From: Escherichia phage MirsaeidiM_Esher2
DNA length: 40,547 nt
Sequence record: PQ464628.1
Reading direction: 5' to 3' (one strand)
A program made the position numbers and the translations under genes. Position 1 is the first letter of the stretch; each line of letters starts with the position of its first letter. Positions 3,026 through 40,547 of the stretch are shown here, in pieces. A model generated the notes under the pieces. It did no database searches. It saw nothing but the letters and a program-made list of their open reading frames with translations, and had not been told where the DNA came from.

Positions 3026-3064
3026 TAGTGACGATGAGTTTTGGACCAAAAGTTTGAGACCACA

Positions 3065-12820: not shown

Positions 12821-13274
12821 GGTTCAGTTCAACCCACGGTCCCGGACTGACGCTATCTTCGTTCACTGTTCGGCTACCAAGCCAGAGATGGACATCGGGG
12901 TAGAGACCATCCGTATGTGGCACAAGCAGCAAGGCTGGCTGGACGTAGGCTACCACTTTATCATCAAGCGCGATGGTACTGTGGAAGAGGGTCGCCCGGT
13001 CAATGTCGTAGGGTCACACGTTAAGGACTGGAACTCACGGTCTGTAGGCGTCTGCCTTGTAGGGGGAATTGACGCTAAGGGTCAGTTTGAAGCTAACTTC
13101 ACTCCAGCCCAGATGAACTCCCTGCGCAACAAGCTGGAGGAGCTTATGAGTAAGTACCCTAATGCAGAGCTAATGGCCCATCATTCAGTGGCAGCCAAAG
13201 CCTGTCCGAGTTTCGACGTGAAGCGATGGTGGACCAAGAATGAACTGGTTACATCTGACCGCGAATCAGTTTAG
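12807..13274 (+). CDS. 3.5: N-acetylmuramoyl-L-alanine amidase / lysozyme (T7 gp3.5 homolog)
   Basis: DAIFVHCSATKP, QGWLDVGYHFIIKRDGTVEEGR, AHHSVAAKACPSFDVKRWW match recalled T7 lysozyme. Confidence 0.95.
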   Translation: MMVSKVQFNPRSRTDAIFVHCSATKPEMDIGVETIRMWHKQQGWLDVGYHFIIKRDGTVEEGRPVNVVGSHVKDWNSRSVGVCLVGGIDAKGQFEANFTPAQMNSLRNKLEELMSKYPNAELMAHHSVAAKACPSFDVKRWWTKNELVTSDRESV

Positions 13275-13683
13275 TATCGACCCATCTAGTCCCTCAGGTC
13301 TATCCAGAAATGGTAAGCCTACTGGATGGGACGCTGGTAGATATTGGAGGACTAAGGTTAAAGGGAAGCCAGTAATGTGCCACGTCATAATCATGATGCT
13401 CAAAACTGGAGGTCCTCTACCAGATGGAATGGAAGTTGACCATATTGACCGTGACGGCCATAACAACAGGATTGACAACCTCAGGATTGTGACTAGGCAA
13501 GTCAACGTATGCAACACCAGCGTTAGGAAGGACTCAAAGTCTGGCATCAAGGGTGTAGCATACAGAGCTGGCAGAACTAAGCCTTATGTAGCACACAAGC
13601 AGCGCTTTGGAGAGAGGACGTCGAAGTCTTTCAAAACATCTAATGAAGCCATCGAATGGCTAGGAGAACAACCCAATGATTAA
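13240..13683 (+). CDS. 3.8: HNH endonuclease with AP2-like domain (T7 gp3.8 position)
   Basis: HNH motif EVDHIDRDGHNNRIDNLRIVTRQVN; downstream GIKGVAYRAGRTKPYVAHK (AP2-like); start overlaps the 3' end of the amidase gene by 35 nt. Confidence 0.8.
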   Translation: MNWLHLTANQFSIDPSSPSGLSRNGKPTGWDAGRYWRTKVKGKPVMCHVIIMMLKTGGPLPDGMEVDHIDRDGHNNRIDNLRIVTRQVNVCNTSVRKDSKSGIKGVAYRAGRTKPYVAHKQRFGERTSKSFKTSNEAIEWLGEQPND

Positions 13684-13891
13684 ACTTATCGAATTTCTTG
13701 GTCGTCTGGCGGTGCGTGGTTATCGTCGTGCTGCGGTACTGGAACGAAAGGTAGAAAAGAAGACTGCGGACGGTGCGGCTGATGCTGCTGCTCTGGCTGA
13801 CAAGCTGACCATCGCGTCACTGGAAGCTGGCATGAAGGCTCGTCAGGCTGATACCAAAGCTGACCAGTTGGCTCAGTTCTTCAAAGCCTAA
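13676..13891 (+). CDS. hypothetical Ala-rich helical protein (71 aa)
   Basis: ATG overlaps HNH stop; stop TAA lies inside the next promoter-like sequence. Confidence 0.5.
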   Translation: MIKLIEFLGRLAVRGYRRAAVLERKVEKKTADGAADAAALADKLTIASLEAGMKARQADTKADQLAQFFKA

Positions 13892-13909
13892 ACTATCACC
13901 TTAGGGATT
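13887..13909 (+). promoter_or_regulatory. divergent phage-RNAP promoter-like sequence (CCTAAACTATCACCTTAGGGATT)
   Basis: Matches consensus upstream half but has CTTA in place of TATA at -4..-1; activity uncertain. Confidence 0.4.
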
Positions 13910-13959
13910 GGACCATTAGTCCTGTCCCTTTGTTCGCATTATTGATTAAGGAGTGACCA

Positions 13960-14139
13960 ATGGTTACAGTTATTCTAGTTCTAACGCTGATCAGTGGTAG
14001 TGGGCAAACTATCAGCCAAGTACCTATAACAGCGCCAACATTACAGGACGCATTCACAATATGTGACCAGTCCGGCTCAAAGTGGGCCGATAAGTTTGGC
14101 GATGTATCAAACGTTGCAGCAGGGTATGAGTGTATTTAA
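13960..14139 (+). CDS. hypothetical small hydrophobic protein (59 aa)
   Basis: SD AAGGAG 8 nt upstream; N-terminal hydrophobic segment VTVILVLTLISG; its translation initiation region is duplicated at the gene 4 start. Confidence 0.4.
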   Translation: MVTVILVLTLISGSGQTISQVPITAPTLQDAFTICDQSGSKWADKFGDVSNVAAGYECI

Positions 14140-14146
14140 GGAGTGA

Positions 14147-15850
<1,704 letters not shown>

Positions 15851-18284: not shown

Positions 18285-18654
18285 CGGAAAGTCCCTGCAT
18301 TTTACAGGCGCTGCGAGCGAGCTGTATGCAAGTTACCGACTGACATCTATTGGACACCAAGTCTTCCTACCAGCGTTCACCCAGTCCAAAGCGGACTTAG
18401 TGGTGGATATTAACGGGACCCTTAAGAGGGTTCAGGTGAAGACTGGGACCAAGCTGAAGAACTGCAATAGCATTCAGGTCCGACTCGGTGGGTGCGGAAA
18501 GCCCACCTACAGCCCGGGAGAGATTGACCTACTGGCTGTGGTCTATCAGGATAACTTCTGGCTGATTCCGTTCGTGGAAGAAGTGAGGCTTAAAACCTCC
18601 ATGTGTATAAACCTAACGTCCGACAAGAAGTACGGACACTTTAAACAGGAGTAA
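18256..18654 (+). CDS. hypothetical protein (132 aa), possible PD-(D/E)xK-like nuclease fold
   Basis: TTG start with GGAGGG 5 nt upstream, overlapping the end of gene 5; contains D-x(n)-QVK arrangement (ADLVVDINGTLKRVQVK); function is inference only. Confidence 0.5.
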   Translation: MDQRGKNAIDGKSLHFTGAASELYASYRLTSIGHQVFLPAFTQSKADLVVDINGTLKRVQVKTGTKLKNCNSIQVRLGGCGKPTYSPGEIDLLAVVYQDNFWLIPFVEEVRLKTSMCINLTSDKKYGHFKQE

Positions 18655-18950: not shown

Positions 18951-19156
18951 GTGAATACTTACGGGTCCTAGCGGCCCTTAAGTCCTGCCCGAAGACCTTT
19001 CAGTCCAACTATGTGCGCAACAATGCAGCACTGGTGGCTGAGGCTGCGAGTCGTGGACATCTAAGCTGCCTGTCTATGGACGGGCGTAACAACGGTGCGT
19101 GGGAGATTACCGCCGAAGGCGTTAAGTTCCTGAACCAACACGGAGGCTGTCTATGA
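18947..19156 (+). CDS. 5.7: gp5.7-like protein
   Basis: 69 aa; LKSCPKTFQSNYVRNNAALVAEAASRGH..GAWEIT matches recalled T7 gp5.7; start overlaps previous stop. Confidence 0.75.
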   Translation: MSEYLRVLAALKSCPKTFQSNYVRNNAALVAEAASRGHLSCLSMDGRNNGAWEITAEGVKFLNQHGGCL

Positions 19157-19602
19157 AGATACCTGAAAGTCTGAAAGAGCTGGTCCTTGAAATGGGTGAG
19201 TGCGAGATGACGCACCGTAAGTATGCTGAGTTCTACGCATCTTGGTCTTACACCCTGACCGAGAAGGACGTTGAGTCCTACACCGAGTCTCCTTCTGAGG
19301 CTTATGAGTGGAGTCCGTTCATCGGACTGACCATCGTAGCTAGCGGTATGTGGGATGACAGCTACGGCTCAGAGGTAAACGACTGGGACGTGTACCGCCA
19401 AGTTGAGAAGGAGACCGAAATGTCGTCCAACTTCTGGAGCCTGATGTCCCACCTCAACTCAGATGACAACGACATGGCCCATGAGTTCGCCAACAAATGG
19501 CTGAAGCCTGAGGTGACTCTGGAACGTATTGAGGAGCCTAAAGTTCCCTTGATGCCATATGCAGTCGCTATGGCTACAGGAGGTCTGGACGATGGGTGCT
19601 GA
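19153..19602 (+). CDS. hypothetical highly acidic protein (149 aa) at the gp5.9 position
   Basis: SD GGAGG 6 nt upstream; strongly acidic composition; lies between gene 5.7 and the exonuclease gene. Confidence 0.6.
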   Translation: MKIPESLKELVLEMGECEMTHRKYAEFYASWSYTLTEKDVESYTESPSEAYEWSPFIGLTIVASGMWDDSYGSEVNDWDVYRQVEKETEMSSNFWSLMSHLNSDDNDMAHEFANKWLKPEVTLERIEEPKVPLMPYAVAMATGGLDDGC

Positions 19603-24550: not shown

Positions 24551-25600
24551 ATGGCAAAAGTTCCGGGTCAGAAAGTTGGTACAGACCAAGGTAAAGGCAA
24601 CTCTGGTTCCGACGCTCTTGCGTTGTTCCTGAAGGTCTTTGCTGGCGAAGTCCTGACCGCATTCACTCGCCGCTCTGTAACTGCTGACAAGCATATTGTC
24701 CGTACCATTCAGAACGGTAAGTCTGCTCAGTTCCCGGTCATGGGTCGCACCTCTGGTGTGTATCTGGCTCCGGGTGAGCGACTGTCCGATAAGCGTAAAG
24801 GTATCAAACATACCGAGAAAGTGATTACCATTGATGGTCTGCTGACTGCCGATGTGATGATTTTCGACATTGAAGACGCGATGAACCACTATGACGTGGC
24901 TGGCGAGTACTCCAACCAGTTGGGCGAAGCTCTGGCTATCGCTGCCGATGGTGCGGTACTGGCTGAGATGGCTATTCTGTGTAACCTACCGGCTGCATCT
25001 GATGAAAACATAGCTGGTCTTGGCAAAGCGTCCGTACTTGAAGTTGGTACTAAAGCCGACCTGAACACTCCGGCTAAGCTGGGTGAAGCAATCATCGGTC
25101 AACTGACCATTGCTCGTGCGAAGCTGACCTCCAACTACGTTCCTGCTGGCGACCGTTACTTCTACACCACGCCGGACAACTACTCTGCAATCCTCGCGGC
25201 TCTGATGCCTAACGCTGCTAACTATGCTGCTCTGATTGACCCAGAGACTGGTAACATCCGTAACGTGATGGGCTTCGTTGTTGTTGAAGTCCCACATCTG
25301 GTACAGGGTGGCGCTGGTGAGACTCGTGGTGACGATGGCATCTCTATCGCTTCCGGTCAGAAACACGCATTCCCGGCAACTGCTACTGGCGACGTTAAAG
25401 TTGCTATGGACAACGTTGTGGGTCTGTTCTCTCACCGTTCTGCTGTGGGTACTGTGAAGCTGCGTGACTTGGCGCTGGAACGTGACCGTGACGTCGATGC
25501 TCAGGGCGACCTGATTGTTGGTAAGTACGCTATGGGTCACGGCGGCCTGCGTCCAGAAGCGGCAGGCGCACTGGTTTTCACAGCGGCGCTGGGGGGTTAA
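24551..25600 (+). CDS. 10: major capsid protein 10A (T7 gp10 homolog)
   Basis: 349 aa; LALFLKVFAGEVLTAF, KHTEKVITIDGLLTADV, AILAALMPNAANYAALIDPE, HRSAVGTVKLRDLALER, AMGHGGLRPEAAGA match recalled T7 gp10A. Confidence 0.97.
   Translation: MAKVPGQKVGTDQGKGNSGSDALALFLKVFAGEVLTAFTRRSVTADKHIVRTIQNGKSAQFPVMGRTSGVYLAPGERLSDKRKGIKHTEKVITIDGLLTADVMIFDIEDAMNHYDVAGEYSNQLGEALAIAADGAVLAEMAILCNLPAASDENIAGLGKASVLEVGTKADLNTPAKLGEAIIGQLTIARAKLTSNYVPAGDRYFYTTPDNYSAILAALMPNAANYAALIDPETGNIRNVMGFVVVEVPHLVQGGAGETRGDDGISIASGQKHAFPATATGDVKVAMDNVVGLFSHRSAVGTVKLRDLALERDRDVDAQGDLIVGKYAMGHGGLRPEAAGALVFTAALGG
25573..25579 (+). promoter_or_regulatory. candidate -1 ribosomal frameshift heptamer G GTT TTC
   Basis: Same heptamer and same position (last ~8 codons of 10A) as recalled for the T7 10A/10B frameshift. 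Confidence 0.55.
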
Positions 25601-25863
25601 CGACCTTTAAGGCCCTCTCTACAGAGGGTCCTACCTTAGAGACGTACAGTTCTACGGTGGGGACCAGCCTGAAGGTTGACTTCCCTGAGCTTTCAGATGT
25701 GACCGATTGGTCGCTGCTTGAGGTGACTACGCCTGATGGTGTTAGCTACTCCCGTAGAACCAACAGTCTCTACTTCAAGGCCACCTCTGGCGTGGAAGGT
25801 CTGGTGATTGTTGGGTATGACGGTTCGCCTGTGCGTTCCTTCAACGTATCTTTCACAAACTAA
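25579..25863 (+). CDS. capsid protein 10B C-terminal extension (reached by -1 frameshift)
   Basis: -1 frame open from 25525 to stop at 25861..25863; adds ~94 aa after Phe343; ORF-track entry 25657..25863 is the tail of this frame. Confidence 0.45.
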   Translation, partial: HSGAGGLTTFKALSTEGPTLETYSSTVGTSLKVDFPELSDVTDWSLLEVTTPDGVSYSRRTNSLYFKATSGVEGLVIVGYDGSPVRSFNVSFTN

Positions 25864-25866
25864 TTG

Positions 25867-25906
25867 AAACCCCTTGGGTGCCTTCGGGTGCTTGAGGGGT
25901 TTTTTG
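25867..25906 (+). terminator. intrinsic terminator after capsid gene (Tphi-like)
   Basis: Long GC/GU stem around a C(UUCG)G tetraloop (25882..25887) followed by TTTTTTG (25900..25906). Confidence 0.8.
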
Positions 25907-25920
25907 CTTAAGGAGGGACT

Positions 25921-26010
25921 ATGGTCCTTATTTACACATGGTTAGTACTATTCGTCTTATTCTGGGCGTACCTGCTGCCAAGCTCACCGTCTAGCCCCTA
26001 TGACTGTTAA
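25921..26010 (+). CDS. hypothetical 29-aa hydrophobic peptide
   Basis: Strong SD AGGAGGG 5 nt upstream; stop TAA overlaps the SD of gene 11; very short. Confidence 0.25.
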   Translation: MVLIYTWLVLFVLFWAYLLPSSPSSPYDC

Positions 26011-26021
26011 GGAGTAAACCT

Positions 26022-26588
26022 ATGTCTCAATACATTCCACTGAATGCTAACGATGACTTAGACGCCATCAACGATATGTTAGCTGCTATCGGTGAACCGG
26101 CAGTCCTACAGCTTGACGAAGGCAATGCTGACGTCTCGAATGCTCAACGCATCCTGCATCGTGTCAATCGTCAGGTCCAAGCTAAGGGATGGAACTTTAA
26201 CATTAATGAAGCTGCTGTCCTGACACCTGATGTCCAAGACAACAGGATTCGATTCCTGCCGTCATACCTTCGTGTAATGACTGCCGGGGCCACCAGCTAC
26301 TACAGCAACATGGGTGGATACCTGTACGACCTGTCCACTCAGTCAACCACTTTCACCGACCCTATAACGGTAGAGCTTGTTGAGATGAAACCGTTCTCTG
26401 AGATGCCTGTGGTATTCAGGGATTACATCGTTACCAAGGCCAGCCGTGAGTTCAACGCTAAGTTCTTCGGTAGCCCAGAGTCTGAGCTGTACCTTCGTGA
26501 GCAGGAAGCAGAACTCTATCAGCAGGTCATGGAATACGAGATGGACACTGGTCGCTACAACATGATGTCCGACATCGGGAGGGACTAA
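26022..26588 (+). CDS. 11: tail tubular protein A (T7 gp11 homolog)
   Basis: 188 aa; AINDMLAAIGEP, YIVTKASREFNAKFFG, MEYEMD..YNM match recalled T7 gp11. Confidence 0.95.
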   Translation: MSQYIPLNANDDLDAINDMLAAIGEPAVLQLDEGNADVSNAQRILHRVNRQVQAKGWNFNINEAAVLTPDVQDNRIRFLPSYLRVMTAGATSYYSNMGGYLYDLSTQSTTFTDPITVELVEMKPFSEMPVVFRDYIVTKASREFNAKFFGSPESELYLREQEAELYQQVMEYEMDTGRYNMMSDIGRD

Positions 26589-28945
26589 TGCCGCTTATTA
26601 CTCAGTCAATCAAGAACCTTAAAGGTGGCATTAGCCAACAGCCTGATATACTTAGGTTCTCAGACCAAGGCGAGGCACAGGTTAACTGCTGGTCATCCGA
26701 GAGTGATGGACTCCAGAAGCGTCCACCTACAGTCTTCAAGCGACGTCTTAACATCGACGTTGGAAGCAGCCCTAAGTTCCACCTGATTAACCGTGATGAG
26801 CAGGAGCAGTATTACATCGTGTTCAACGGGTCCAACATTCAGGTAGTCGACTTGAGCGGTAATCAATACTCAGTTTCAGGTGCGGTAGACTACGTTAAGT
26901 CGTCCAACCCGCGAGATGACATCCGTGTCGTTACCGTTGCAGACTATACGTTCATCGTGAACCGTAAGGTTGTCGTTAACGGTGGAAGCGAGAAGTCACA
27001 CTCTGGTTATAATCGTAAAGCTCGTGCTTTAATTAACCTGCGTGGTGGACAGTATGGTCGCACCCTTAAGGTAGGAATCAACGGAGGCGTTAAGGTTTCG
27101 CATAAGCTGCCAGCAGGTAATGATGCCGAGAATGACCCACCTAAGGTGGATGCTCAGGCCATCGGTGCAGCTCTGAGAGACCTTCTTGTTGCTGCTTACC
27201 CTACCTTCACTTTCGACCTTGGGTCTGGATTCCTGCTAATCACAGCTCCTTCAGGGACCGATATTAACTCAGTGGAGACGGAGGATGGCTACGCTAACCA
27301 GCTAATAAGCCCAGTCCTAGACACTGTGCAGACAATCTCTAAACTACCTCTTGCCGCTCCTAATGGGTATATCATTAAGATTCAAGGTGAGACAAACAGT
27401 AGCGCCGATGAATACTACGTGATGTATGACTCCAACACTAAGACGTGGAAGGAGACAGTGGAGCCGGGAGTTGTCACTGGGTTCGATAACACCACAATGC
27501 CACACGCCCTGGTACGACAATCTGATGGCTCCTTTGAGTTCAAGGCTCTGGACTGGTCTAAGCGTGGTGCTGGTAATGATGACACAAACCCTATGCCTAG
27601 CTTCGTGGATGCTACGATTAACGATGTGTTCTTCTACAGGAACAGGCTAGGGTTCTTGTCAGGCGAGAACGTAATCATGAGCCGTTCAGCCAGCTACTTT
27701 GCGTTCTTCCCTAAGAGTGTGGCGACACTGAGTGATGATGACCCTATTGATGTAGCTGTAAGTCACCCTCGAATCTCAATCCTTAAGTATGCCGTTCCGT
27801 TTAGCGAGCAGCTACTACTTTGGTCGGATGAGGTTCAGTTCGTGATGACAAGCTCTGGTGTCCTTACCTCGAAGTCTATCCAGCTTGATGTAGGCTCAGA
27901 GTTTGCCCTAGGTGACAATGCCAGACCGTTCGCTGTAGGACGCTCAGTCTTCTTCTCAGCTCCTCGTGGGTCATTCACCAGCATTAAGCGATACTTCGCT
28001 GTAGCTGATGTGTCTGATGTGAAGGATGCAGATGATACAACTGGTCACGTACTGTCCTACATCCCTAACGGGGTGTTTGATATTCAAGGTACAGGGACTG
28101 AGAACTACATCTGCGTCAACTCTACAGGTGCATACAACCGTATCTACATCTACAAGTTCTTGTTTAAGGACGGCGTACAGCTTCAAGCCTCTTGGTCACA
28201 CTGGGAGTTCCCTAAAGATGATAAGATTCTTGCGTCTGCTTCTATTGGCTCTACCATGTTCATCGTTCGTCAGCACCAAGGAGGGGTAGACATTGAGCAC
28301 CTTAAGTTCATCAAGGAGGCAACTGACTTTCCGTCAGAGCCATATAGACTCCATGTTGACTCCAAGGTGTCTATGGTCATCCCAATTGGCTCGTTTAATG
28401 CTGACACATATAAGACTACGGTTGACATTGGTGCTGCTTATAGCGGTAACGCTCCGTCTCCCGGTCGGTACTATCTGATTGACAGTCAGGGTGCTTATTT
28501 AGACCTTGGGGAATTAACCAGTATCTCTACTGTGATTACCCTCAACGGCGATTGGTCAGGACGTACAGTGTTCATCGGACGGTCCTATCTGATGTCCTAC
28601 AAGTTCTCACGGTTCCTGATTAAGATTGAAGATGATAGTGGCACTCAGTCTGAAGACACTGGTCGTCTACAGCTTCGTCGGGCTTGGGTCAACTACAAGG
28701 ACACTGGCGCTCTGAGACTCATTGTCAGAAACGGTGAGCGAGAGTTCGTTAACACCTTTAATGGGTACACCCTTGGTCAGCAAACCATAGGGACTACTAA
28801 CATTGGTGACGGGCAGTATCGCTTCGCTATGAATGGTAACGCATTAACCACGAGTCTAACCTTAGAGTCCGACTATCCTACCCCAGTGTCAATCGTTGGA
28901 TGTGGCTGGGAGGCGTCATACGCTAAGAAAGCTCGTTCCGTCTAA
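26588..28945 (+). CDS. 12: tail tubular protein B (T7 gp12 homolog)
   Basis: 785 aa; ATG overlaps gp11 stop (TAATG); size and position as T7 gp12. Confidence 0.93.
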   Translation: MPLITQSIKNLKGGISQQPDILRFSDQGEAQVNCWSSESDGLQKRPPTVFKRRLNIDVGSSPKFHLINRDEQEQYYIVFNGSNIQVVDLSGNQYSVSGAVDYVKSSNPRDDIRVVTVADYTFIVNRKVVVNGGSEKSHSGYNRKARALINLRGGQYGRTLKVGINGGVKVSHKLPAGNDAENDPPKVDAQAIGAALRDLLVAAYPTFTFDLGSGFLLITAPSGTDINSVETEDGYANQLISPVLDTVQTISKLPLAAPNGYIIKIQGETNSSADEYYVMYDSNTKTWKETVEPGVVTGFDNTTMPHALVRQSDGSFEFKALDWSKRGAGNDDTNPMPSFVDATINDVFFYRNRLGFLSGENVIMSRSASYFAFFPKSVATLSDDDPIDVAVSHPRISILKYAVPFSEQLLLWSDEVQFVMTSSGVLTSKSIQLDVGSEFALGDNARPFAVGRSVFFSAPRGSFTSIKRYFAVADVSDVKDADDTTGHVLSYIPNGVFDIQGTGTENYICVNSTGAYNRIYIYKFLFKDGVQLQASWSHWEFPKDDKILASASIGSTMFIVRQHQGGVDIEHLKFIKEATDFPSEPYRLHVDSKVSMVIPIGSFNADTYKTTVDIGAAYSGNAPSPGRYYLIDSQGAYLDLGELTSISTVITLNGDWSGRTVFIGRSYLMSYKFSRFLIKIEDDSGTQSEDTGRLQLRRAWVNYKDTGALRLIVRNGEREFVNTFNGYTLGQQTIGTTNIGDGQYRFAMNGNALTTSLTLESDYPTPVSIVGCGWEASYAKKARSV

Positions 28946-29021: not shown

Positions 29022-29483
29022 ATGTATATTCGCAAGGCTACGGATGTAGACGTTTGGTACGCTGCTGCACAACTTACAGATGACGACTTAGAGGAGTGTA
29101 AAGCCAACTACGGGACCACTGAAGGTCTCGCTGAAAGGATGCAAGCACACCTAACGTCTTCATCTGTGGTTTTGACTAACGCTACTGGGGACATTTACGC
29201 CTATGGAGGCAACCAAGGTGACAACGTTTGGTTCCTGACAACCAGAATGACCGAGCGTCTCCCACCTAAAGGTAAGCGAGAGTTCCGTGAGAGAGTAATG
29301 GAGTATCGTGACAAGATGCTGGAGGACTACCCGGTACTATGGAACTACGTCTGGGAAGGCAATGCGTCCCACATCCGGTTTCTCAAGTCAATAGGCGCTA
29401 AGTTCCACGACGATAAGTGGACCAGAAGTCCAGTGACTGGAGAAGTATTCATTCTATTCACAATCACCAAGGAGGACACGTGA
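29022..29483 (+). CDS. gp13-like internal virion/assembly protein (by position)
   Basis: 153 aa; SD AAGGAG; first gene after the phi13-like promoter. Confidence 0.65.
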
Positions 29484-29866
29484 CTAAGGTCTGTACCGTC
29501 TGTAAAATTGAAAAGCCACTAGAAGCGTTCTCTCCACGGAAAGACTCTAAGTGTGGTGTACGCTCTGCCTGTAAGCTGTGTCATAATGGACGGAGCCACA
29601 AGAACAAGGGATACGAGAAGTATCACATTACGCAGATAGAATATGATTCCATCCTAAAAGAGCAGGGCGGGGTCTGCGCAATCTGCAAGACATTAGGAAC
29701 TAGCCGAGGATTATGTGTTGACCACTGTCACACCTCCGGGAAAGTCCGAGGAATCCTATGTCATACCTGCAACCTAAAGCTGACCCGTAGAAACTACCAC
29801 TCTACATGCGAAGATTTCGATGGTAAGGCTGCTGAGTATCTGGCTACAAGCCGGAAGGGGGATTAG
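29480..29866 (+). CDS. endonuclease VII-like His-Me finger (HNH superfamily) nuclease
   Basis: Motif C-x2-C...[21 protein letters not shown] (endo VII signature) plus an N-terminal Cys cluster; no ATG in frame, GTG at 29480 with AAGGAGG 4 nt upstream overlaps the gp13 stop (GTGA); ORF track gives 29417. Confidence 0.7.
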
Positions 29867-32756: not shown

Positions 32757-35700
32757 ATGGCGACTCGTGGTATTCGCAACAATAACATCGGGAACATTCG
32801 TGTTTCCAAAGACCAGTGGGAAGGAGCTACAGGAGACGATGGGTCTTTCGTAACGTTCGACAGCCCTGAATCCGGGGTCCGAGCCTTAGCGAAAAACCTT
32901 CAAAGCTACGGTCGCCAAGGCTATGACTCAATCGAGAAGATTATCAACCGATGGGCGCCCCCCAGCGAGAATGCAACTCAGTCTTATATCGACTCGGTTG
33001 TGGCTGCTACTGGCATTCCAGCGACCCAAAGTATCGACTTGACGAACCCTGATGTCCTCGCCTCTCTGTCTGAGGCTATCGGCTACCACGAGACTGGTTC
33101 CCGGTATGACCATGAGGTCTACAAGACTGGCGTCTCTCGTGCCTTAAGTGGTGCGGGAGGCATAACCCCAAAGACTCCACCAGTAAGCGCTAACGTATTT
33201 GACGCACTCACGGAAGGACTCAAGGCTAAACCTAAAGTAGCTCTGGGCGAGAACCTTCCGACCGCTGCTGGTCTAAACATTGAGGGTCAAGCACCTGAAG
33301 CTCCCAACGAATCGTTCGGTGAGATGTTCTATAAGTCTACTGGCGAGACCATGCAGGAACGAGAGGATCGCTCTACGTGGTTCGGTTTCGGCTCGGCTAC
33401 AGAAGCTGAAGTGAAGAACTCTATGGTCGGCGTGGCTATCCGCGCTGGTCAGACCGAGGACTCACTTGATGTCATTGGCGATGTGTTCAACCCTACCCGC
33501 TGGAACAACCATAAGTGGACTCGTGAAGAGCTTGACCAGATTCGTAACGCTGGGGTTCTGCCTCAGTATTACGGAGTAATTACTGGCGGTTCTCCTCAGA
33601 ATCTGACAGAGCTGATCAACTTGGCGTTGGATAACCAGAAGTTGGACCAAGAGAAGGCCAAGGCTGGGACTGGTGCTCAGTTAGCTGCTGGTGTGATTGG
33701 CGCTGGTGTGGACCCTCTGACCTACGTTCCTATCGCTGGACAGATTGGTAAGGGTGGCAAGCTGGTCAACAAGATGTTCACCGTGGCTGCTCAATCTGGA
33801 GCACTTGCTGGTGTATCAGAGATGGCCCGTACCTCAGTGGCCGGTGGTGATGCTCATGTGGCTGAGGCTATCCTTGGCGGTGCTCTCTTCGGCGGAGGTA
33901 TGACTGCTATCGCTGATGGTTTAGGCAGAGCCTTAGGTCGTAACACTAACGAGTTCGCTGGACCAGCCACACGTCTGGAAGCTCGTGAGACATCCCGTAA
34001 CGTTGATGGTCAGGACCTGTCTCGTCTACCTATTCAAGAAGGTGAGGAGACCTTTAGTCATCAAGGCGTTAAGTTCGCTGACGTTCCGAATGAGCCGGGT
34101 AGTGTACGACTGGAAGATGGTTCAATCCTGATTGGTGAAAACCCTCTGAACCCTAAGACACGTCAAGTCTTTGACGAAGTGATTGAGCCAGAACGTGCCG
34201 CTGCTGGTGTGAACCTTGGTGGACTTACCGAGATTGGCCTGAAGCTGCTTCGGTCTGAGAACCCTGAGATTCGTGGAGTCGCTGCTGACTTAGTGCGTTC
34301 ACCAACCGGTATGCAGTCAGGGGCCTCAGGTAAAATCGGGACCACTGCGTCAGACGTATTCGAGAGACTTCGTGCTGTGGACCATCGGTTCTACAACGAC
34401 ATCGACGACGCGGTTACTGAGGCGCTCAAGGACCCATACTTCCAGACAGCATTCTGGCGAGACTCTGGCGCATTCCGTCAGGACATCTACCAGCGTGTGT
34501 CTATGGCTATTGAAGACGGTAGCGGAAACCTGAAGGCTGAACTGACTCCGGGAGAACTGAAGGTCTATGACCTGCTGAAGAACCAGTTTGACGCCAAGCG
34601 TGAGATGATGGAGAACCCGGCGATGTTTGGTCGTCCAGACGCTCAGTCTATCTTTCCGGGCAGCCGCTTCAAGGGAACCTACGTCCCGCATGTGTATAGC
34701 AACCAGATGAAGGAGCTGTACATCAAGGAGCTTGGGAGTACAGAGGCACTACAGGAGGCCATCAAGAAGTCATGGTTGACCAGCTATGCGTCTCGACCTG
34801 AGGTCAAGAAACGTGTGGACGAGGCACTCTTAGAGGCTGACCCTACGTTGACTCCAGAAGGACTTGCGGCTGCGGTCGATAAGTACGCCAACGATAAGGC
34901 TTATGGTATCTCTCACACCGAGCAGTTCGAGCGTTCATCCGTAATGGAAGAGAACATCAATGGCCTGGTGGGTCTGGAGAACAACAGCTTCCTTGAGGCT
35001 CGTAACCTGTTCGATAGCGATATGTCAATCGTCCTACCTAACGGTCAGACCTTCAGTGTCAACAACCTGCGTGAGTGGGACATGGACAAGATTGTCCCGG
35101 CCTACAACCGTCGAGTTAATGGCGATATTGCTATCATGGCTGGTACAGGCAAGACCACGAAGGACATGAAGGACTTGGTTGAGACCATGATGAACAAGGC
35201 TGGGGATGACGGTAAGTTGAAAGGTGAAGTATCTACCTTACGTGACACCTTGAAGATTCTAACTGGTCGTTCTCGACGCGATGGTGCTGATGATGCAGCC
35301 TTCGCTACCGTGATGCGCACAATGACAGACCTATCGTTCTTCGCTAAGAATGCCTACATGGGTGTTCAGAACTTAACGGAGATTGGTGGTATGCTGGCTC
35401 GTGGCAACGTTCGTGCAATGCTGCATGGAGTCCCAATTTTCCGTGACCTAGCCTTCCGTAACAAGAAGGTTGGGGCCTCAGAGATTAAGGACCTGCACAA
35501 TGTTATCTTCGGTAAGGAACTGGATGACTCAATCCGTCCGTCTAAACAGGATGTCATTGACCGTCTGCGATCTTACAGTGACCTCGGTCGTGGTACAGCT
35601 ACAGCTCTGGGGACTGCCAAGTATTACACTGGCGAACTTGCAGTACGCTCTCCGTTCACTAAAGTCCTCAACGGTACGACCAACTACCTGTTAGATGCTG

Positions 35701-36653
35701 GACGTCAAGGCTTCCTGTCTGACATCGTGGAGCATAGCCTGACTGGTAGTAAGCGTAAGTTCGATGACCGCTGGCTTAAGACCGCTGGTATCTCTGACGA
35801 GCAGTGGAAGGGCATTAAGTCCCTCATCCGTGAGTCAGTGACTCGTGGTCCAGACGGGAAGTACACCATCAAGGATAAGAAGGCGTTCAGTCAGGACCCA
35901 AGGGCTATGGACCTGTGGCGTATGGGTGACACCATCGCTGATGAAACGTTACTCCGTCCTCATAAGCTGTCCAACATGGACGCCAAGGCTTATGGTCCTA
36001 TCGCTAAGACTGTCCTTCAGTTTAAGAACTTCGTCATCAAGTCCATCAATGGGCGAACCATGCGTACCTTCTATAACGCCACGAAGAACAACCGAGCGAT
36101 TGACGCTGCACTATCGACCGTGATGTCTATGGGTCTGGCTGGTATCTACTACATGGCTCAGGCGCACGTCAAGGCTTATGCTATGCAGGATGGTCGAGAC
36201 CGTGACTACCTTAAGCAAGCTCTGGACCCGACGATGATTGGTTATGCGGCTCTGTCCCGTAGTTCACATCTGGGTGGCCCACTTGGGGTAGCTAACATTC
36301 TAGGTGGCATCGCTGGGTATGAGGACACTAAGATGCTCCGTTCGTCTATCCTACCTCGTTCGCCTACAGAGAAGCCTGAACGTGCCATCACGTTTGGTGC
36401 AGCTACAAGTGACCCTGTGATGAATGTTGTTGGTAACTTCTTGGAGCAGGTTCCAGCTTTCGGATATGCTGCTAACGTTGGCGTTTCTGCTTACAACTTG
36501 GCTGGCTACCTGAAGGCCGACACTCGGGTAAACGAGCGAGACTACATGACCGGGATGTATAACACCTTCCGTGAACTGGTTCCGAACGACCCGATTACTC
36601 AGAAGTTGCTACTGGGAACGTTTGAGGAGCAAGGTATCCACATCAAGGACTAA
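32757..36653 (+). CDS. 16: internal core protein (T7 gp16 homolog) with divergent N-terminal domain
   Basis: 1298 aa; central/C-terminal regions colinear with recalled T7 gp16 (NPAMFG, GTYVPHVYS, EARNLFDSD, RVNGDIAIM, MDLWR, AALSRSS); N-terminal ~120 aa lack the T7 SLT motif. Confidence 0.95.
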   Translation: MATRGIRNNNIGNIRVSKDQWEGATGDDGSFVTFDSPESGVRALAKNLQSYGRQGYDSIEKIINRWAPPSENATQSYIDSVVAATGIPATQSIDLTNPDVLASLSEAIGYHETGSRYDHEVYKTGVSRALSGAGGITPKTPPVSANVFDALTEGLKAKPKVALGENLPTAAGLNIEGQAPEAPNESFGEMFYKSTGETMQEREDRSTWFGFGSATEAEVKNSMVGVAIRAGQTEDSLDVIGDVFNPTRWNNHKWTREELDQIRNAGVLPQYYGVITGGSPQNLTELINLALDNQKLDQEKAKAGTGAQLAAGVIGAGVDPLTYVPIAGQIGKGGKLVNKMFTVAAQSGALAGVSEMARTSVAGGDAHVAEAILGGALFGGGMTAIADGLGRALGRNTNEFAGPATRLEARETSRNVDGQDLSRLPIQEGEETFSHQGVKFADVPNEPGSVRLEDGSILIGENPLNPKTRQVFDEVIEPERAAAGVNLGGLTEIGLKLLRSENPEIRGVAADLVRSPTGMQSGASGKIGTTASDVFERLRAVDHRFYNDIDDAVTEALKDPYFQTAFWRDSGAFRQDIYQRVSMAIEDGSGNLKAELTPGELKVYDLLKNQFDAKREMMENPAMFGRPDAQSIFPGSRFKGTYVPHVYSNQMKELYIKELGSTEALQEAIKKSWLTSYASRPEVKKRVDEALLEADPTLTPEGLAAAVDKYANDKAYGISHTEQFERSSVMEENINGLVGLENNSFLEARNLFDSDMSIVLPNGQTFSVNNLREWDMDKIVPAYNRRVNGDIAIMAGTGKTTKDMKDLVETMMNKAGDDGKLKGEVSTLRDTLKILTGRSRRDGADDAAFATVMRTMTDLSFFAKNAYMGVQNLTEIGGMLARGNVRAMLHGVPIFRDLAFRNKKVGASEIKDLHNVIFGKELDDSIRPSKQDVIDRLRSYSDLGRGTATALGTAKYYTGELAVRSPFTKVLNGTTNYLLDAGRQGFLSDIVEHSLTGSKRKFDDRWLKTAGISDEQWKGIKSLIRESVTRGPDGKYTIKDKKAFSQDPRAMDLWRMGDTIADETLLRPHKLSNMDAKAYGPIAKTVLQFKNFVIKSINGRTMRTFYNATKNNRAIDAALSTVMSMGLAGIYYMAQAHVKAYAMQDGRDRDYLKQALDPTMIGYAALSRSSHLGGPLGVANILGGIAGYEDTKMLRSSILPRSPTEKPERAITFGAATSDPVMNVVGNFLEQVPAFGYAANVGVSAYNLAGYLKADTRVNERDYMTGMYNTFRELVPNDPITQKLLLGTFEEQGIHIKD

Positions 36654-36671
36654 ACTATCACTATAGGAAAC
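36649..36671 (+). promoter_or_regulatory. phage-RNAP promoter (ACTAAACTATCACTATAGGAAAC)
   Basis: Consensus; gp16 stop TAA lies inside it; upstream of tailspike gene. Confidence 0.8.
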
Positions 36672-36717
36672 TGGAGGCGCTACCATAGGTCTCCGTTTAA
36701 ATAACAAAGGAGGCATA

Positions 36718-39700
36718 ATGTCCACGATTACACAATTCCCTTCAGGAAACACTCAGTACAGGATTGAGTTCGACTACCTAGCCAGAACGTTTGTTGTTGT
36801 TACGCTGGTGAATAGCTCTAACCCTACCCTGAACCGTGTACTGGAAGTTGGTCGAGATTACCGATTCCTTAATCCAACGATGATTGAGATGTTGGTTGAC
36901 CAATCAGGTTTCGACATCGTTCGTATTCACCGTCAGACTGGAACTGACTTAGTGGTAGACTTCAGGAATGGCTCAGTGTTGACAGCTAGTGACCTGACAA
37001 ATTCAGAGCTTCAGGCTATCCATATTGCAGAAGAAGGTCGAGACCAAACGGTTGACTTAGCGAAGGAATATGCCGATGCTGCTGGTAGCTCTGCTGGCAA
37101 CGCTAAGGATAGCGAGGACGAAGCACGCCGAATCGCTGAGAGTATCAGGGCAGCTGGTCTAATTGGCTATATGACCCGTCGCTCCTTCGAGAAAGGCTAC
37201 AACGTTACAACATGGAGCGAGGTCCTTCTATGGGAAGAGGATGGTGATTATTACCGCTGGGATGGTACGCTTCCAAAGAACGTTCCTGCTGGTTCAACTC
37301 CTGAAACTTCCGGTGGGATTGGATTAGGTGCGTGGGTTAGTGTTGGTGATGCTGCTTTAAGAAGTCAGATTTCAAACCCGGAAGGGGCAATACTCTACCC
37401 TGAATTACATAGAGCACGCTGGCTTGATGAAAAAGATGTTCGTGGTTGGGGTGCTAAAGGGGATGGTGTCACTGATGATACAGCAGCGTTAACGAGCGCA
37501 TTAAACGACACACCGGTTGGACAAAAGATTAATGGCAATGGGGGAACATATAAGGTCACATCCCTGCCTGACATTAGTAGATTCGTCAATACTCGTTTTG
37601 TATATGAACGTATTCCAGGTCAGCCGCTTTATTATGTCTCTGAAGAATTTGTTCAAGGTGAACTGTTTAAAATAACGGACACCCCTTATTACAATGCGTG
37701 GCCACAGGATAAAGCGTTCGTTTACGATGATGTTATTTACTGCCCGTTCATGGCTGGTGATAGACATGGGGTCAGTCGTCTGCATGTATCATGGGTTAAG
37801 TCTGGTGATGACGGTCAAACATGGTCTACTCCAGAGTGGTTAACTGATCTGCATCCAGATTACCCTACAGTGAACTATCATTGTATGAGTATGGGTGTAT
37901 GTCGCAACCGTCTGTTTGCCATGATTGAAACACGTACTTTAGCCAATAACGCATTAACCAATTGTGCATTGTGGGATCGCCCCATGTCTCGTAGCCTGCA
38001 TCTTACTGGTGGTATCACTAAAGCTGCAAATCAGCGATATGCAACAATACATGTACCAGACCACGGACTATTCGTGGGTGATTTTGTTAACTTCTCTAAT
38101 TCTGCGGTAACAGGTGTATCCGGTGATATGAATGTTGCAACCGTAATAGATAAGGACAACTTCACGGTTCTTACACCCAACCAGCAGACTTCAGATTTGA
38201 ATAACGCTGGAAAGAATTGGCACATGGGTACTTCTTTCCATAAGTCTCCATGGCGTAAGACAGACCTTGGGCTAATCCCTCGTGTCACAGAGGTGCATAG
38301 CTTTGCTACTATTGATAACAATGGCTTTGTTATGGGTTATCATCAAGGCGATGTAGCCCCACGCGAAGTTGGGCTTTTCTACTTCCCTGATGCTTTCAAT
38401 AGCCCATCTAGTTATGTTCGTCGTCAGATACCATCTGAGTATGAACCAGATGCGTCAGAGCCATGCATCAAGTACTATGACGGTGTATTATACCTTATCA
38501 CTCGTGGCACTCGTGGGGATAGACTAGGTAGCTCTTTGCATCGTAGTAGAGACATAGGTCAGACTTGGGAGTCACTGAGATTTCCACATAATGTTCATCA
38601 TACTACATTACCTTTTGCTAAAGTAGGGGATGACCTTATTATGTTTGGTTCAGAACGTGCAGAAAATGAATGGGAAGCAGGTGCACCCGATGATCGTTAC
38701 AAGGCATCTTATCCTCGCACCTTCTATGCACGCTTGAATGTAAACAATTGGAATGCAGATGATATTGAATGGGTTAACATCACTGACCAGATTTATCAGG
38801 GCGGAATAGTTAACTCAGGTGTAGGTGTTGGTTCGGTAGTTGTGAAGGATAATTACATCTACTACATGTTTGGTGGAGAGGACCATTTTAACCCATGGAC
38901 ATATGGAGATAACTCAGCGAAGGATCCCTTCAAATCAGATGGTCATCCCTCAGATTTGTATTGCTACAAAATGAAGATTGGCCCAAGCAATCATGTTTCC
39001 CGTGATTTCAGGTATGGTGCTGTACCTAACAGAGCTGTTCCCGTGTTTTTTGATACGAATGGGATTCGCACTGTTCCTGCGCCAATGGAATTTACAGGGG
39101 ATTTGGGTTTAGGGCATGTGACCATTAGAGCCAGCACCAGTAGTAACATTCGCTCTGAAGTTTTAATGGAAGGTGAATATGGGTTTATCGGGAAATCTAT
39201 ACCGACTGATAACCCGGCAGGGCAGCGCACCATATTTTGCGGGGGTGAAGGCACCAGTTCAACGACTGGCGCACAGATTACGCTTTATGGTGCAAATAAC
39301 ACCGACTCAAGGCGAATAGTTTACAATGGTGCTGAGCATCTGTTCCAGAACGCTGACGTTAAGCCTTATCTCGATAACGTGATTGCGCTTGGTGGACCAA
39401 GTAACCGTTTCACAACTGCATATCTCGGAAGCAACCCTATTGTTACTTCTAATGGGGAGAAGAAAACAGAGCCGGTAGTTTTTGATGATGCTTTCCTAGA
39501 TGCCTGGGGTGACGTTCACTACATCATGTATCAATGGTTAGATGCTGTTCAACTGAAAGGCAATGATGCTCGTATTCACTTCGGGGTTATTGCTCAGCAA
39601 ATTCGTGATGTATTCATTGCACACGGTCTGATGGATGAAAACAGTACGAATTGTCGTTATGCCGTTCTGTGCTATGACAAGTATCCACGGTTGACCGATA

Positions 39701-39912
39701 CGGTATTTTCGCACAATGAAATCATTGAACACACTGACGAGGAGGGTAATGTCACTACTACGGAAGAGCCTGTATTCACTGAGGTGGTTATCCATGAAGA
39801 GGGTGAGGAGTGGGGTGTTCGGCCTGACGGAATTTTCTTTGCTGAAGCCGCTTATCAGAGAAGAAAACTGGAAAGAATCGAAGCCAGACTTTCTGCTCTT
39901 GAACAGAAGTAA
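36718..39912 (+). CDS. 17: tailspike: gp17-type N-terminal adaptor + endosialidase catalytic domain + C-terminal intramolecular chaperone domain
   Basis: 1064 aa; N-terminus EFDYLARTFVVVTL like T7 gp17; Asp-boxes SGDDGQTW (37801..37824) and SRDIGQTW (38545..38568); overall matches recalled K1F endosialidase; AT-richer than flanking genes. Confidence 0.93.
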   Translation: MSTITQFPSGNTQYRIEFDYLARTFVVVTLVNSSNPTLNRVLEVGRDYRFLNPTMIEMLVDQSGFDIVRIHRQTGTDLVVDFRNGSVLTASDLTNSELQAIHIAEEGRDQTVDLAKEYADAAGSSAGNAKDSEDEARRIAESIRAAGLIGYMTRRSFEKGYNVTTWSEVLLWEEDGDYYRWDGTLPKNVPAGSTPETSGGIGLGAWVSVGDAALRSQISNPEGAILYPELHRARWLDEKDVRGWGAKGDGVTDDTAALTSALNDTPVGQKINGNGGTYKVTSLPDISRFVNTRFVYERIPGQPLYYVSEEFVQGELFKITDTPYYNAWPQDKAFVYDDVIYCPFMAGDRHGVSRLHVSWVKSGDDGQTWSTPEWLTDLHPDYPTVNYHCMSMGVCRNRLFAMIETRTLANNALTNCALWDRPMSRSLHLTGGITKAANQRYATIHVPDHGLFVGDFVNFSNSAVTGVSGDMNVATVIDKDNFTVLTPNQQTSDLNNAGKNWHMGTSFHKSPWRKTDLGLIPRVTEVHSFATIDNNGFVMGYHQGDVAPREVGLFYFPDAFNSPSSYVRRQIPSEYEPDASEPCIKYYDGVLYLITRGTRGDRLGSSLHRSRDIGQTWESLRFPHNVHHTTLPFAKVGDDLIMFGSERAENEWEAGAPDDRYKASYPRTFYARLNVNNWNADDIEWVNITDQIYQGGIVNSGVGVGSVVVKDNYIYYMFGGEDHFNPWTYGDNSAKDPFKSDGHPSDLYCYKMKIGPSNHVSRDFRYGAVPNRAVPVFFDTNGIRTVPAPMEFTGDLGLGHVTIRASTSSNIRSEVLMEGEYGFIGKSIPTDNPAGQRTIFCGGEGTSSTTGAQITLYGANNTDSRRIVYNGAEHLFQNADVKPYLDNVIALGGPSNRFTTAYLGSNPIVTSNGEKKTEPVVFDDAFLDAWGDVHYIMYQWLDAVQLKGNDARIHFGVIAQQIRDVFIAHGLMDENSTNCRYAVLCYDKYPRLTDTVFSHNEIIEHTDEEGNVTTTEEPVFTEVVIHEEGEEWGVRPDGIFFAEAAYQRRKLERIEARLSALEQK

Positions 39913-40022: not shown

Positions 40023-40217
40023 ATGATTGAGTTAGACTTCAAGAATGAGGTCCTTAAAGCCTCTCCTATCGTCGGGACCGCTGCGGCTGATGGTGCCAGT
40101 CGGTTCTTCTTCGGACTTACACTGAACGAATGGTTCTACGTTGCAGCTATAGCGTACACCGTTGTCCAGATTGGTGTGCTAGTCTACAAAACGATTAAAG
40201 GAGGTGGTAAAACATGA
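40023..40217 (+). CDS. 17.5: class II holin (T7 gp17.5 homolog)
   Basis: 64 aa; APIVGTAAADGASRFFFGLTLNEWFYVAAIAYTVVQIG matches recalled T7 holin; SD GGAGG. Confidence 0.85.
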   Translation: MIELDFKNEVLKASPIVGTAAADGASRFFFGLTLNEWFYVAAIAYTVVQIGVLVYKTIKGGGKT

Positions 40218-40477
40218 CGCAGATGGACTTAGAGAAGTTCCTCTTAATTCTGGATACTGAACGTGCTCGACTCATGCTGCAAGACCTGCGGGATGACACT
40301 AAGCGTTCACCTCAGCTTTACAACGCCATCGAGAAGCTACTGGCTCGTCACAACTTTGTGCTAAGCAAGGTGTCAGTTGACGAGAAGACGCTCGCTGATA
40401 TGGAGGCCCTGAACGCAGAGTATGATAAGGTGCTTTCAGCGACTGAGGATAATGACACAGGGTATGGTGTTCAATAA
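40214..40477 (+). CDS. 18: terminase small subunit / DNA maturation protein (T7 gp18 homolog)
   Basis: 87 aa; RSPQLYNAIEKLLARH matches recalled T7 gp18; ATG overlaps holin stop; SD AGGAGG. Confidence 0.85.
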   Translation: MTQMDLEKFLLILDTERARLMLQDLRDDTKRSPQLYNAIEKLLARHNFVLSKVSVDEKTLADMEALNAEYDKVLSATEDNDTGYGVQ

Positions 40478-40528
40478 GTGTTAGACTCAAGGTCATTACT
40501 ATATGTAGTGGCCTTTATGGTTAACACT
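40477..40528 (+). promoter_or_regulatory. RNase III-type hairpin candidate upstream of Rz (R18.5-like)
   Basis: Lower stem AGTGTTA 40477..40483 / TAACACT 40522..40528; upper stem AGGTCA 40490..40495 / TGGCCT 40509..40514; 13-nt loop. Confidence 0.5.
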
Positions 40529-40547
40529 AACTAGTGGAGGAGACTCT
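40493..40547. repeat. 55-nt duplicate of window positions 1..55 (circular assembly overlap)
   Basis: Exact identity read directly. Confidence 0.95.

Follow-up and report, generated by a model that had tools for sequence, protein, structure and literature searches.

Which enzyme does Escherichia phage MirsaeidiM_Esher2 carry on its tail, and what does it tell about the host of this phage? A preliminary description of the DNA (sequence record PQ464628.1) had interpreted a 1064-aa open reading frame as a tailspike with endosialidase activity and had predicted a host with a K1 polysialic acid capsule. In the following, "window" designates the whole stretch of DNA that was analysed (40,547 nt). 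Based on sequence comparison and on the analogy to phage K1F, the virion tailspike encoded by this frame, gene 17 of a K1F-like Kayfunavirus, is almost certainly an endo-alpha-2,8-sialidase of the endoNF type, which would act by the mechanism of its K1F counterpart. Enzymes of this type form glycoside hydrolase family 58 (GH58).

Gene 17 and its genomic setting

Judged from its sequence, the window is the circularly permuted whole genome of a K1F-like phage belonging to the genus Kayfunavirus. It is collinear with the genomes of K1F (93% covered) and PhiNW-B1 (95% covered), most aligned segments being about 93-97% identical in both cases, and its closest database relatives are Kayfunavirus records. 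The T7-like genome, about 40 kb long and collinear, resembles K1F in nucleotide sequence and carries K1F-type promoters, as is characteristic of Kayfunavirus (K1F-like Studiervirinae). Allowing for at most three mismatches, the promoter consensus of K1F occurs 11 times in the window, always on the plus strand, where 0.04 matches are expected. At the locus under study, gene 17 and its expression signals are located as follows:

36650..36667, plus strand: K1F-type phage RNA polymerase promoter CTAAACTATCACTATAGG, which agrees with the K1F promoter consensus at every position
36707..36713, plus strand: Shine-Dalgarno sequence AAGGAGG, 4 nt before the ATG of gene 17, read from the sequence
36718..39912, plus strand: gene 17, endosialidase tailspike precursor (1064 aa, about 119 kDa), an open reading frame collinear with K1F gp17 (CAJ29390)

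The reading frame noted in the preliminary description is real: it begins with ATG and continues without frameshifts or internal stops to a stop codon. The promoter shares nucleotides with the stop codon of gene 16, 50 nt ahead of the gene 17 ATG; at the equivalent position a promoter is annotated in phage ASO2B, and in phage Pipis a ribosome-binding site is annotated where the Shine-Dalgarno sequence is found. K1F possesses the same promoter and the same type of genome, and its gene 17 is likewise preceded by gene 16 and followed by holin 17.5; by analogy, gene 17 would be transcribed late, from a phage-polymerase promoter of its own. Sigma-70 promoters are no more frequent around gene 17 than in shuffled sequence. 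A pattern scan between positions 39912 and 40023 detected no terminator, and the intergenic RNA following the gene has no folding advantage over shuffled sequence (z = -0.72). The "terminator" of the old K1F record M63657 was rejected as a candidate: it maps inside the coding region of the chaperone domain (approximately positions 39578-39678 of the window), and this annotation is obsolete because the CDS of that record is truncated (920 aa).

The window has the form of an assembler-style circular contig, whose ends overlap by 55 nt. Such an origin would be compatible with a non-functional or mis-assembled copy of gene 17, for example an assembly chimera. We regard this as extremely improbable, because the gene has the same length in 10 independent isolates, to which its 1064 uninterrupted codons are collinear, and because the same protein and its neighbouring genes exist on an independent 10-kb contig. 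The latter is part of a read-archive assembly (SRR30904254) deposited without host information, the only other place where the identical tailspike protein was found; at least 80% of gene 17 is present in 30 phage records.

Domain architecture and active site

The comparison with Pfam profiles assigned seven domains to the tailspike, each of them above its curated cut-off. Those preceding the C-terminal domain are, together with the relevant sites:

36718..37182, plus strand: N-terminal anchor (aa 1 to about 155), a T7 gp17-like particle-binding domain followed by a helical linker
37183..37350, plus strand: Tail_spike_N domain (aa 156-211; Pfam PF18668, 68.7 bits, cut-off 25)
37453..37653, plus strand: endosialidase N-terminal cap (aa 246-312; Pfam End_N_terminal, E 1.6e-37)
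37654..38979, plus strand: six-bladed beta-propeller catalytic domain (aa 313-754), interrupted by the beta-barrel (Pfam End_beta_propel)
37765-37767, plus strand: active-site residue H350, identical in K1F
37801..37824, plus strand: Asp-box 1, SGDDGQTW (aa 362-369)
37987..38235, plus strand: beta-barrel polysialic-acid-binding domain, inserted into the propeller (aa 424-506; Pfam End_beta_barrel, PF12195)
38362-38364, plus strand: active-site residue R549, identical in K1F
38458..38460, plus strand: catalytic residue Glu581, identical in K1F
38503-38505, plus strand: active-site residue R596, identical in K1F
38545..38568, plus strand: Asp-box 2, SRDIGQTW (aa 610-617)
38656-38658, plus strand: active-site residue R647, identical in K1F
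38986..39447, plus strand: triple-beta-helix stalk (aa 757-910; Pfam End_tail_spike, PF12219, E 2e-78)

The profile End_beta_propel (PF12217) was matched with an E-value of 2e-221 over positions 1-366 of 367, and End_beta_barrel with an E-value of 7e-47 over positions 1-83 of 83. The comparison with endosialidase structures, which had been proposed as a check, gave E = 0 and a score of about 1529 bits for endoNF (1v0e/3gvl) at aa 245-910. Together with the conservation of the catalytic residues, these matches bear out the identification of the tailspike as an endosialidase. Both Asp-boxes named in the preliminary description are in place, and across the six reading frames of the 40.5-kb window the pattern S-x-D-x-G-x-T-W occurs at these two sites only. 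In the stalk, residues R837, S848, and Q853 are conserved, which Schwarzer and co-workers reportedly described in 2009 as forming a binding site. For H350, R549, E581, R596, and R647, a deep mutational scan of K1F found substitutions to be highly untolerated (PMC12632334). If the spike acts like that of K1F, the sites of beta-barrel and stalk would hold the polysialic acid chains, the propeller site E581/R596/R647/H350/R549 would cleave them, and the phage would reach the outer membrane by tunnelling through the K1 capsule.

The T7 gp17-like N-terminus that had been proposed was recovered as well: Phage_T7_tail (Pfam PF03906) matches aa 10-115 with 58 bits (cut-off 25.2), and the structures of the T7 gp17 N-terminus (pdb codes 7boz and 8dsp) align to aa 6-116. 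By analogy to K1F, this part (about 150 aa) would dock six trimers onto the gp11/gp12 tail. The following Tail_spike_N domain resembles the N-terminal domain of CBA120 TSP1 and G7C gp66, residues 102-211 of 4oj5 being aligned to aa 155-264 of the tailspike; it probably serves as a neck or connector. That a second receptor-binding protein docks on this domain was considered and rejected: gene 17 is followed by the holin gene, and K1F has been described as carrying a single type of spike.

The N-terminal and the catalytic parts have different relatives. Tail spike 9vvr, whose structure is solved, is near-identical over residues 1-264 (E 3e-165), and this likeness, as well as that to locus L011, ends at aa 262-265. 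More generally, Kayfunavirus tailspikes with other heads (9vvr; L011, L013, L014) share the anchor and the Tail_spike_N module, their N-terminal 223-265 aa being 86-97% identical, and diverge fully after GWGAKGDGVTD; therefore, their receptor-degrading domain is not an endosialidase. The motif GAKGDGVTDDT opens the N-terminal cap and marks the module junction; the crystal constructs of endoNF begin at aa 245/246. Conversely, homologous catalytic, stalk, and chaperone modules are found in the endosialidases of phi92, of the K1E/K1-5 type, of the viral contigs L003-L009, and of "Salmonella phage IME207". EndoN92 of phi92 (4hiz) is homologous to aa 246-908 (E 4e-241); the contigs are about 70% identical from approximately aa 234 onward, and IME207 is about 91-93% identical from approximately aa 141-175 onward. 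Unrelated endosialidase phages have other N-terminal attachment modules, which are adapter-borne or belong to other tail types, whereas the enzyme is fused directly to a T7 gp17-type anchor only in gene 17 of this phage and in K1F-like phages (PMC6872550).

C-terminal chaperone domain and predicted autocleavage

The gene ends with the coding region of an intramolecular chaperone, which contains or adjoins the residues required for autoproteolysis:

39406-39408, plus strand: Arg897
39448..39909, plus strand: C-terminal intramolecular chaperone domain (aa 911-1064, 154 aa, about 17.8 kDa)
39448..39450, plus strand: Ser911 (TCT), nucleophile of the Ser-Lys autocleavage dyad, within GSNPIVTSNGEKK
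39463-39465, plus strand: Lys916, partner of Ser911

A chaperone domain of about 150 aa had been expected here, which agrees with these 154 residues and their homology to Peptidase_S74 (Pfam PF13884; aa 914-971, 36.7 bits, cut-off 22) and to the chaperone construct 3gw6. The latter matches aa 790-1064 over its full length with E-values of about 1e-181 to 2e-183; note that it has an alanine at position 911, i.e. it is the non-cleavable S911A form. Further matches are 3gud (GA-1 neck appendage) and 4uw8 (T5 fibre). Peptidase S74/CIMCD domains, among them those of K5 lyase, the T5 L-shaped fibre, GA-1 gp12, and eukaryotic MYRF, possess the same Ser-Lys dyad and are likewise cut N-terminal to the serine once the trimer has folded. 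Unlike these, the domain studied here belongs to the endoNF subtype proper; its identity with the chaperone domain of K1F is 97.4%.

All five autocleavage residues (R897, T910, S911, N912, K916) are present. The preliminary description had assigned Ser911 to the correct codon, but had drawn the cut one residue too far downstream (IVTS/NGEKK instead of IVT/SNGEKK): the scissile bond is Thr910-Ser911, between nucleotides 39447 and 39448, and Thr910 is the C-terminus of the mature spike. In agreement with this position, the mature peptide (gp17*) ends at codon 910 in the curated K1F record, which annotates 911 onward as mat_peptide gp17-CTD; the last residue of the endoNF crystal chains is also 910, and cleavage has been located immediately N-terminal to S911 (PMC3828593). 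The mechanism of S74 autocleavage and the roles of the dyad and its supporting residues have been described (PMC3828593, PMC8326128). Following the K1F model, the 119-kDa precursor would trimerise, and in the folded trimer the Ser911/Lys916 dyad, helped by Arg897, would cut the Thr910-Ser911 bond. This would free the 18-kDa chaperone and leave the stable 101-kDa mature spike; the products predicted for this sequence have masses of about 101 kDa and about 17.8 kDa.

Allelic variation and the predicted host

K1F gp17 (endoNF; CAJ29390.1; pdb codes 1v0e, 3gvl, 3gw6) has the same domain order, namely anchor, cap, propeller with barrel, stalk, and chaperone, as well as the same catalytic and autocleavage residues. 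The whole-length match to this enzyme that the preliminary description had stated held: both proteins are of equal length and align without gaps, 1035 of 1064 residues (97.3%) being identical and 29 substituted. With 97% identity to a characterised enzyme, the tailspike is expected to be enzymatically active. At the codon level, 75 synonymous-only and 29 nonsynonymous differences were counted, a ratio that indicates purifying selection. The closest tailspike among the alleles compared is that of PhiNW-B1 (98.7%), whose recorded host is E. coli K1; within 96.2-98.7% amino acid identity and likewise with 1064 aa are also the Kayfunavirus tailspikes of 216Ecol046PP, ASO2B, Mt1B1_P3, vB_EcoP_F, phiYIO1-1, LNA3, Pipis, and BUCT788. 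The comparison covered 11 collinear alleles of 1064 aa, the one studied and ten others. Four substitutions occur in none of the ten others: the beta-barrel carries T472N, the stalk S878N and N885L, and the chaperone domain M992L. The text of the K1F mutational scan does not mention them. Others are shared in a mosaic manner: aa 276-347 are as in PhiNW-B1 and 216Ecol046PP, aa 757-759 as in ASO2B, Mt1B1_P3, phiYIO1-1, and vB_EcoP_F, and N410 as in phiYIO1-1 and LNA3, which suggests recombination between Kayfunavirus alleles.

Could these substitutions have changed substrate preference or processivity, for example toward O-acetylated K1 or a K92-type polymer, so that a host prediction based on K1F is approximate? 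Candidates are K410N in the active-site region, T472N in the barrel, and I838T, D872A, S878N, N885L, and T889I in the stalk, the domain that differs most from K1F (8 of 156 residues). We consider such a change quite unlikely. Of the 29 substitutions, 25 recur in relatives, several of which are from K1 strains, and the discrimination hotspots S460, G730, N732, G742, R812, Y821, and Q615 are the same as in K1F. Among the functionally implicated residues that were compared with K1F, only K410 differs, 25 others being identical; this position is broadly substitution-tolerant in K1F infection, and a K410A clone had no significant defect (PMC12632334). Moreover, such effects stay within K1 strains and do not amount to a move to another capsule type. 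The natural K410N exchange agrees, to a modest degree, with the recent observation that infection by K1F does not depend on K410.

With regard to the host, the records of tailspike relatives list "E. coli K1 LU_100", "O18ac:K1:H7", UTI89, and DSM 30083; the closest relatives are isolates from K1 strains such as the first two, and UTI89 and DSM 30083 are K1 strains as well. Wherever a K type is stated in these records, it is K1, whereas it is not given for O2 ECL21443, Mt1B1, and E4002. As K1 strains served for the isolation of close relatives, the prediction of a K1 host has good support. Carrying a spike that is predicted to digest K1 polysialic acid, the phage most probably has E. coli K1 as its natural host. 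An alternative accepts the endosialidase as genuine and assumes a host devoid of the K1 capsule, which the phage enters via a secondary LPS or outer-membrane receptor while the enzyme is idle. The hosts lacking a stated K type would agree with this, as would the observation that K1F forms small plaques in similar numbers on K-12 strain MG1655 (PMC8234382), and the "UNVERIFIED" record of LNA3 (spike 96.9% identical), which lists MG1655 as host. However, K1F did not clear liquid MG1655 cultures (PMC8234382), gene 17 is under purifying selection, and the K types stated for relatives' hosts are K1, which makes the alternative highly unlikely. Accordingly worded, the prediction of E. coli K1 is probabilistic rather than absolute, given the weak plaques of K1F on K-12 and the host MG1655 in the LNA3 record. 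For the same reason, missing K1 dependence of infection is a weaker counter-test than the preliminary description had assumed.

The allele may also be viewed as a natural experiment on endosialidase tuning, in which N410, the heavily substituted stalk, and T472N might shift processivity or the discrimination of K1 strains, or might favour capsule-independent infection. We hold this to be unlikely. K410 has been called essential in vitro, and I838T, D872A, S878N, N885L, and T889I are the stalk changes concerned; a hint at capsule independence is that LNA3, which carries N410, is recorded on K-12. If the tuning were real, K1 strains would perhaps be discriminated by O-antigen or O-acetylation status.

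On the evidence of the sequence, gene 17 is an ordinary intact copy of the well-studied K1F tailspike and as such already known. Its contribution is one more natural allele of a protein for which crystal structures, a mechanism, and a full deep mutational scan already exist. The practical value of the identification lies in annotation and host prediction (K1F-like, K1-capsule-specific), and there is applied interest in using such phages against E. coli K1, a cause of neonatal meningitis, urinary-tract infection, and avian disease.

Gene 17 and the domains of its product

The preliminary description had proposed a match of the tailspike to the endosialidase of coliphage K1F over its whole length. 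This match is real: the alignment of gp17 with K1F gp17 (CAJ29390.1; the enzyme is named endoNF) is gap-free, and 1035 of 1064 residues (97.3%) are identical. The claimed open reading frame was found unbroken in the window at 36718..39912 (+), with an ATG start and 1064 codons. A ribosome-binding site read from the sequence (AAGGAGG) precedes the ATG by 4 nt, and a K1F-type phage-polymerase promoter, CTAAACTATCACTATAGG (36650-36667, a perfect match), overlaps the gene 16 stop codon. The window contains 11 K1F-type promoter sites, all on the + strand, versus 0.04 expected by chance.

Pfam domains of gp17, in order (curated cut-offs applied; each of the seven scores above its own)
aa 10-115: Phage_T7_tail
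aa 156-211 (window 37183-37350): Tail_spike_N
aa 246-312: End_N_terminal
aa 313-754: End_beta_propel (E 2e-221)
aa 424-506: End_beta_barrel, inserted within the propeller
aa 757-910: End_tail_spike
aa 914-971: Peptidase_S74

The comparison with endosialidase structures and S74 domains, which had been proposed as a check, gave both: in a search of solved structures, aa 245-910 matched the catalytic part of endoNF (1v0e, 3gvl, 3gvj, 3gvk; E = 0, ~1529 bits) and aa 790-1064 matched its stalk-plus-chaperone construct 3gw6 (E ~1e-181), while Peptidase_S74 was detected by Pfam. Both Asp-boxes of the preliminary description are in place: SGDDGQTW covers aa 362-369 (nt 37801-37824), and SRDIGQTW covers aa 610-617 (nt 38545-38568). 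A scan of the window in six reading frames for the strict pattern S-x-D-x-G-x-T-W gave no further site. The Tail_spike_N domain, of the CBA120 TSP1 / G7C gp66 type, separates the T7-type anchor from the enzyme; candidate roles are a neck or a vestigial docking module. No second tailspike gene is located downstream of gene 17, which agrees with the description of K1F as a single-spike phage (PMC13352976, PMC6872550).

Functional residues and autocleavage

The active-site residues H350, R549, E581, R596, and R647, which are highly intolerant to substitution in a deep mutational scan of K1F (PMC12632334), are all conserved. The same is true for further positions flagged in that study, namely Q330, D331, H527, S528, K585, N699, Q615, and S460 as well as G730, N732, G742, R812, Y821, R866, and D994. 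Of the substitutions, K410N alone affects a residue that has been discussed in the literature. Lys 410 was deemed essential from in vitro work, yet the scan tolerated broad substitution at this position, and a K410A clone had no significant growth defect in phage infection (PMC12632334); among the eleven alleles compared, Asn 410 is also natural in phiYIO1-1 and LNA3.

The residues implicated in autocleavage are intact: these are the dyad S911/K916 and R897, T910, and N912 (PMC3828593, PMC8326128). Residue 911 is a serine encoded by TCT at 39448-39450 (context GSNPIVTSNGEKK), as had been proposed; the position of the cut, however, has to be corrected from after Ser 911 to its N-terminal side (IVT|SNGEKK). 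In the curated K1F record, the mature peptide gp17* ends with codon 910 and gp17-CTD begins with codon 911; likewise, the crystal chains of mature endoNF stop at residue 910, and the non-cleavable mutant 3gw6 has alanine at position 911. As judged from the sequence, the predicted products are of ~101 kDa (aa 2-910) and ~17.8 kDa (aa 911-1064).

An endosialidase record of K1F from the 1990s (M63657.1) has a CDS of 920 aa (110-2872) versus the current 1064-aa gene, and its 'terminator' (2970-3070) maps within the region coding for the chaperone domain. This annotation is obsolete, probably due to a sequencing frameshift.

Allelic variation and modularity of the tailspike

At the DNA level, gene 17 is 96.5% identical to that of K1F and up to 97.7% identical to that of other isolates; at least 80% of the gene is present in 30 phage records. 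Of the 104 codons differing from K1F, 75 show only synonymous changes, which indicates that gene 17 is under purifying selection. Among the eleven alleles, only T472N, S878N, N885L, and M992L are unique to the window; the other substitutions form a patchwork, each being common to different relatives, which suggests recombination among alleles. The exact protein is absent from NCBI and has one further occurrence, a 10-kb contig of run SRR30904254 on which gene 17 has the same neighbours. The protein falls in the same 90%-identity cluster as K1F endoNF and its crystal chains. It adds an allele to a known type; architecture, mechanism, and biology have all been described already for K1F.

Anchor and enzyme are shared with different partners. 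Over its first 264 residues, gp17 is nearly identical to the solved tail spike 9vvr, whose sequence diverges directly after GWGAKGDGVTD, and three viral contigs (L011, L013, L014) have only the region from aa 1 to 223-262 in common with gp17. In unrelated phages (contigs L002-L007 and L009, IME207, phi92 4hiz), only the enzymatic part is common, from ~aa 141-234 on. This pattern is a textbook case of receptor-degrading heads being exchanged horizontally while the anchor is conserved (PMC6872550). The segment WGAKGDGVTDDTAAL (aa 241-265; window 37438-37512) is the point at which Kayfunavirus spikes with different heads diverge, and may thus be a recombination junction. Its weak pectate-lyase-type match (PF12708) stayed below the cut-off at E 2e-4; it also matches beta-1,3-glucanase structures.

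Genome context and host

The window is a complete, circularly permuted K1F-like genome; 93% of it aligned to K1F and 95% to PhiNW-B1, most segments being ~93-97% identical, and the best database relatives are without exception Kayfunavirus records. The order is 18.5/19 region, collapsed terminal repeat, early genes, RNA polymerase, replication and structural genes, 16, 17, 17.5, and 18.

Landmarks of the window
5696-8377: RNA polymerase
26022-28945: tail genes 11 and 12, docking site of the T7-type anchor
32757-36653: gene 16, before gene 17
40023-40217: holin 17.5, after gene 17
40214-40477: gene 18, the last gene

Positions 40493-40547 are an exact copy of 1-55. Such an overlap (k = 55 style) is the mark of an assembler contig that has been circularised; the window is thus a permuted genome with 40,492 nt of unique sequence. 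The K1F genome aligns to 3065-3242 with its left as well as its right end; a direct terminal repeat of ~178 nt is therefore collapsed to a single copy, and the physical ends would lie at ~3065 (left) and ~3242 (right).

Each of three small nuclease ORFs occupies a segment that K1F and PhiNW-B1 lack, and all three are probably insertions of mobile endonucleases of the homing type.

Nuclease ORFs
13240-13683: HNH_3 (E 4e-15; segment 13262-13662)
18256-18654: PD-(D/E)XK_5 (E 4e-9; segment 18281-18658)
29417-29866: Endonuclease VII family (E 2e-16; segment 29478-29869)

The K1F DNA polymerase gene (12917-15686 of its genome) is annotated as two joined pieces with gp5.3 inside; K1F positions 14931-15531 (600 nt) are missing from the window, so that its polymerase gene (16113-18284, 723 aa) is uninterrupted. 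A 149-aa ORF (19153-19602) without Pfam match is present in PhiNW-B1 and absent from K1F, and a segment of ~425 nt after the capsid gene (25587-26011; 68-aa ORF at 25657-25863) has no counterpart in K1F.

Close relatives with a K type written in the record were isolated on K1 strains: PhiNW-B1, which has the closest spike (98.7%), is recorded with the host 'E. coli K1 LU_100', and vB_EcoP_F and others with 'O18ac:K1:H7 ColV+'. For Pipis and phiYIO1-1 the hosts are UTI89 and DSM 30083, which we take to be K1 strains. These hosts strongly argue for E. coli K1 as the host of MirsaeidiM_Esher2.

A 97.3% identical endosialidase gene is present in 'Acinetobacter phage vB_Aba_01KA' (PV615262.1), which looks like the twin of vB_Eco_1RS, a phage of E. 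coli. In 'Salmonella phage IME207' (47.6 kb; stated host Klebsiella pneumoniae), 84% of gene 17 is present at 92.9% identity. Polysialic acid is, to our knowledge, not known from the recorded hosts of either phage, and these host labels therefore look doubtful.

K1F also forms plaques on MG1655, in similar numbers but of small size, and fails to clear liquid cultures of this strain (PMC8234382); an UNVERIFIED record gives MG1655 as the host of LNA3. Dependence on K1 is thus quantitative and not all-or-none.
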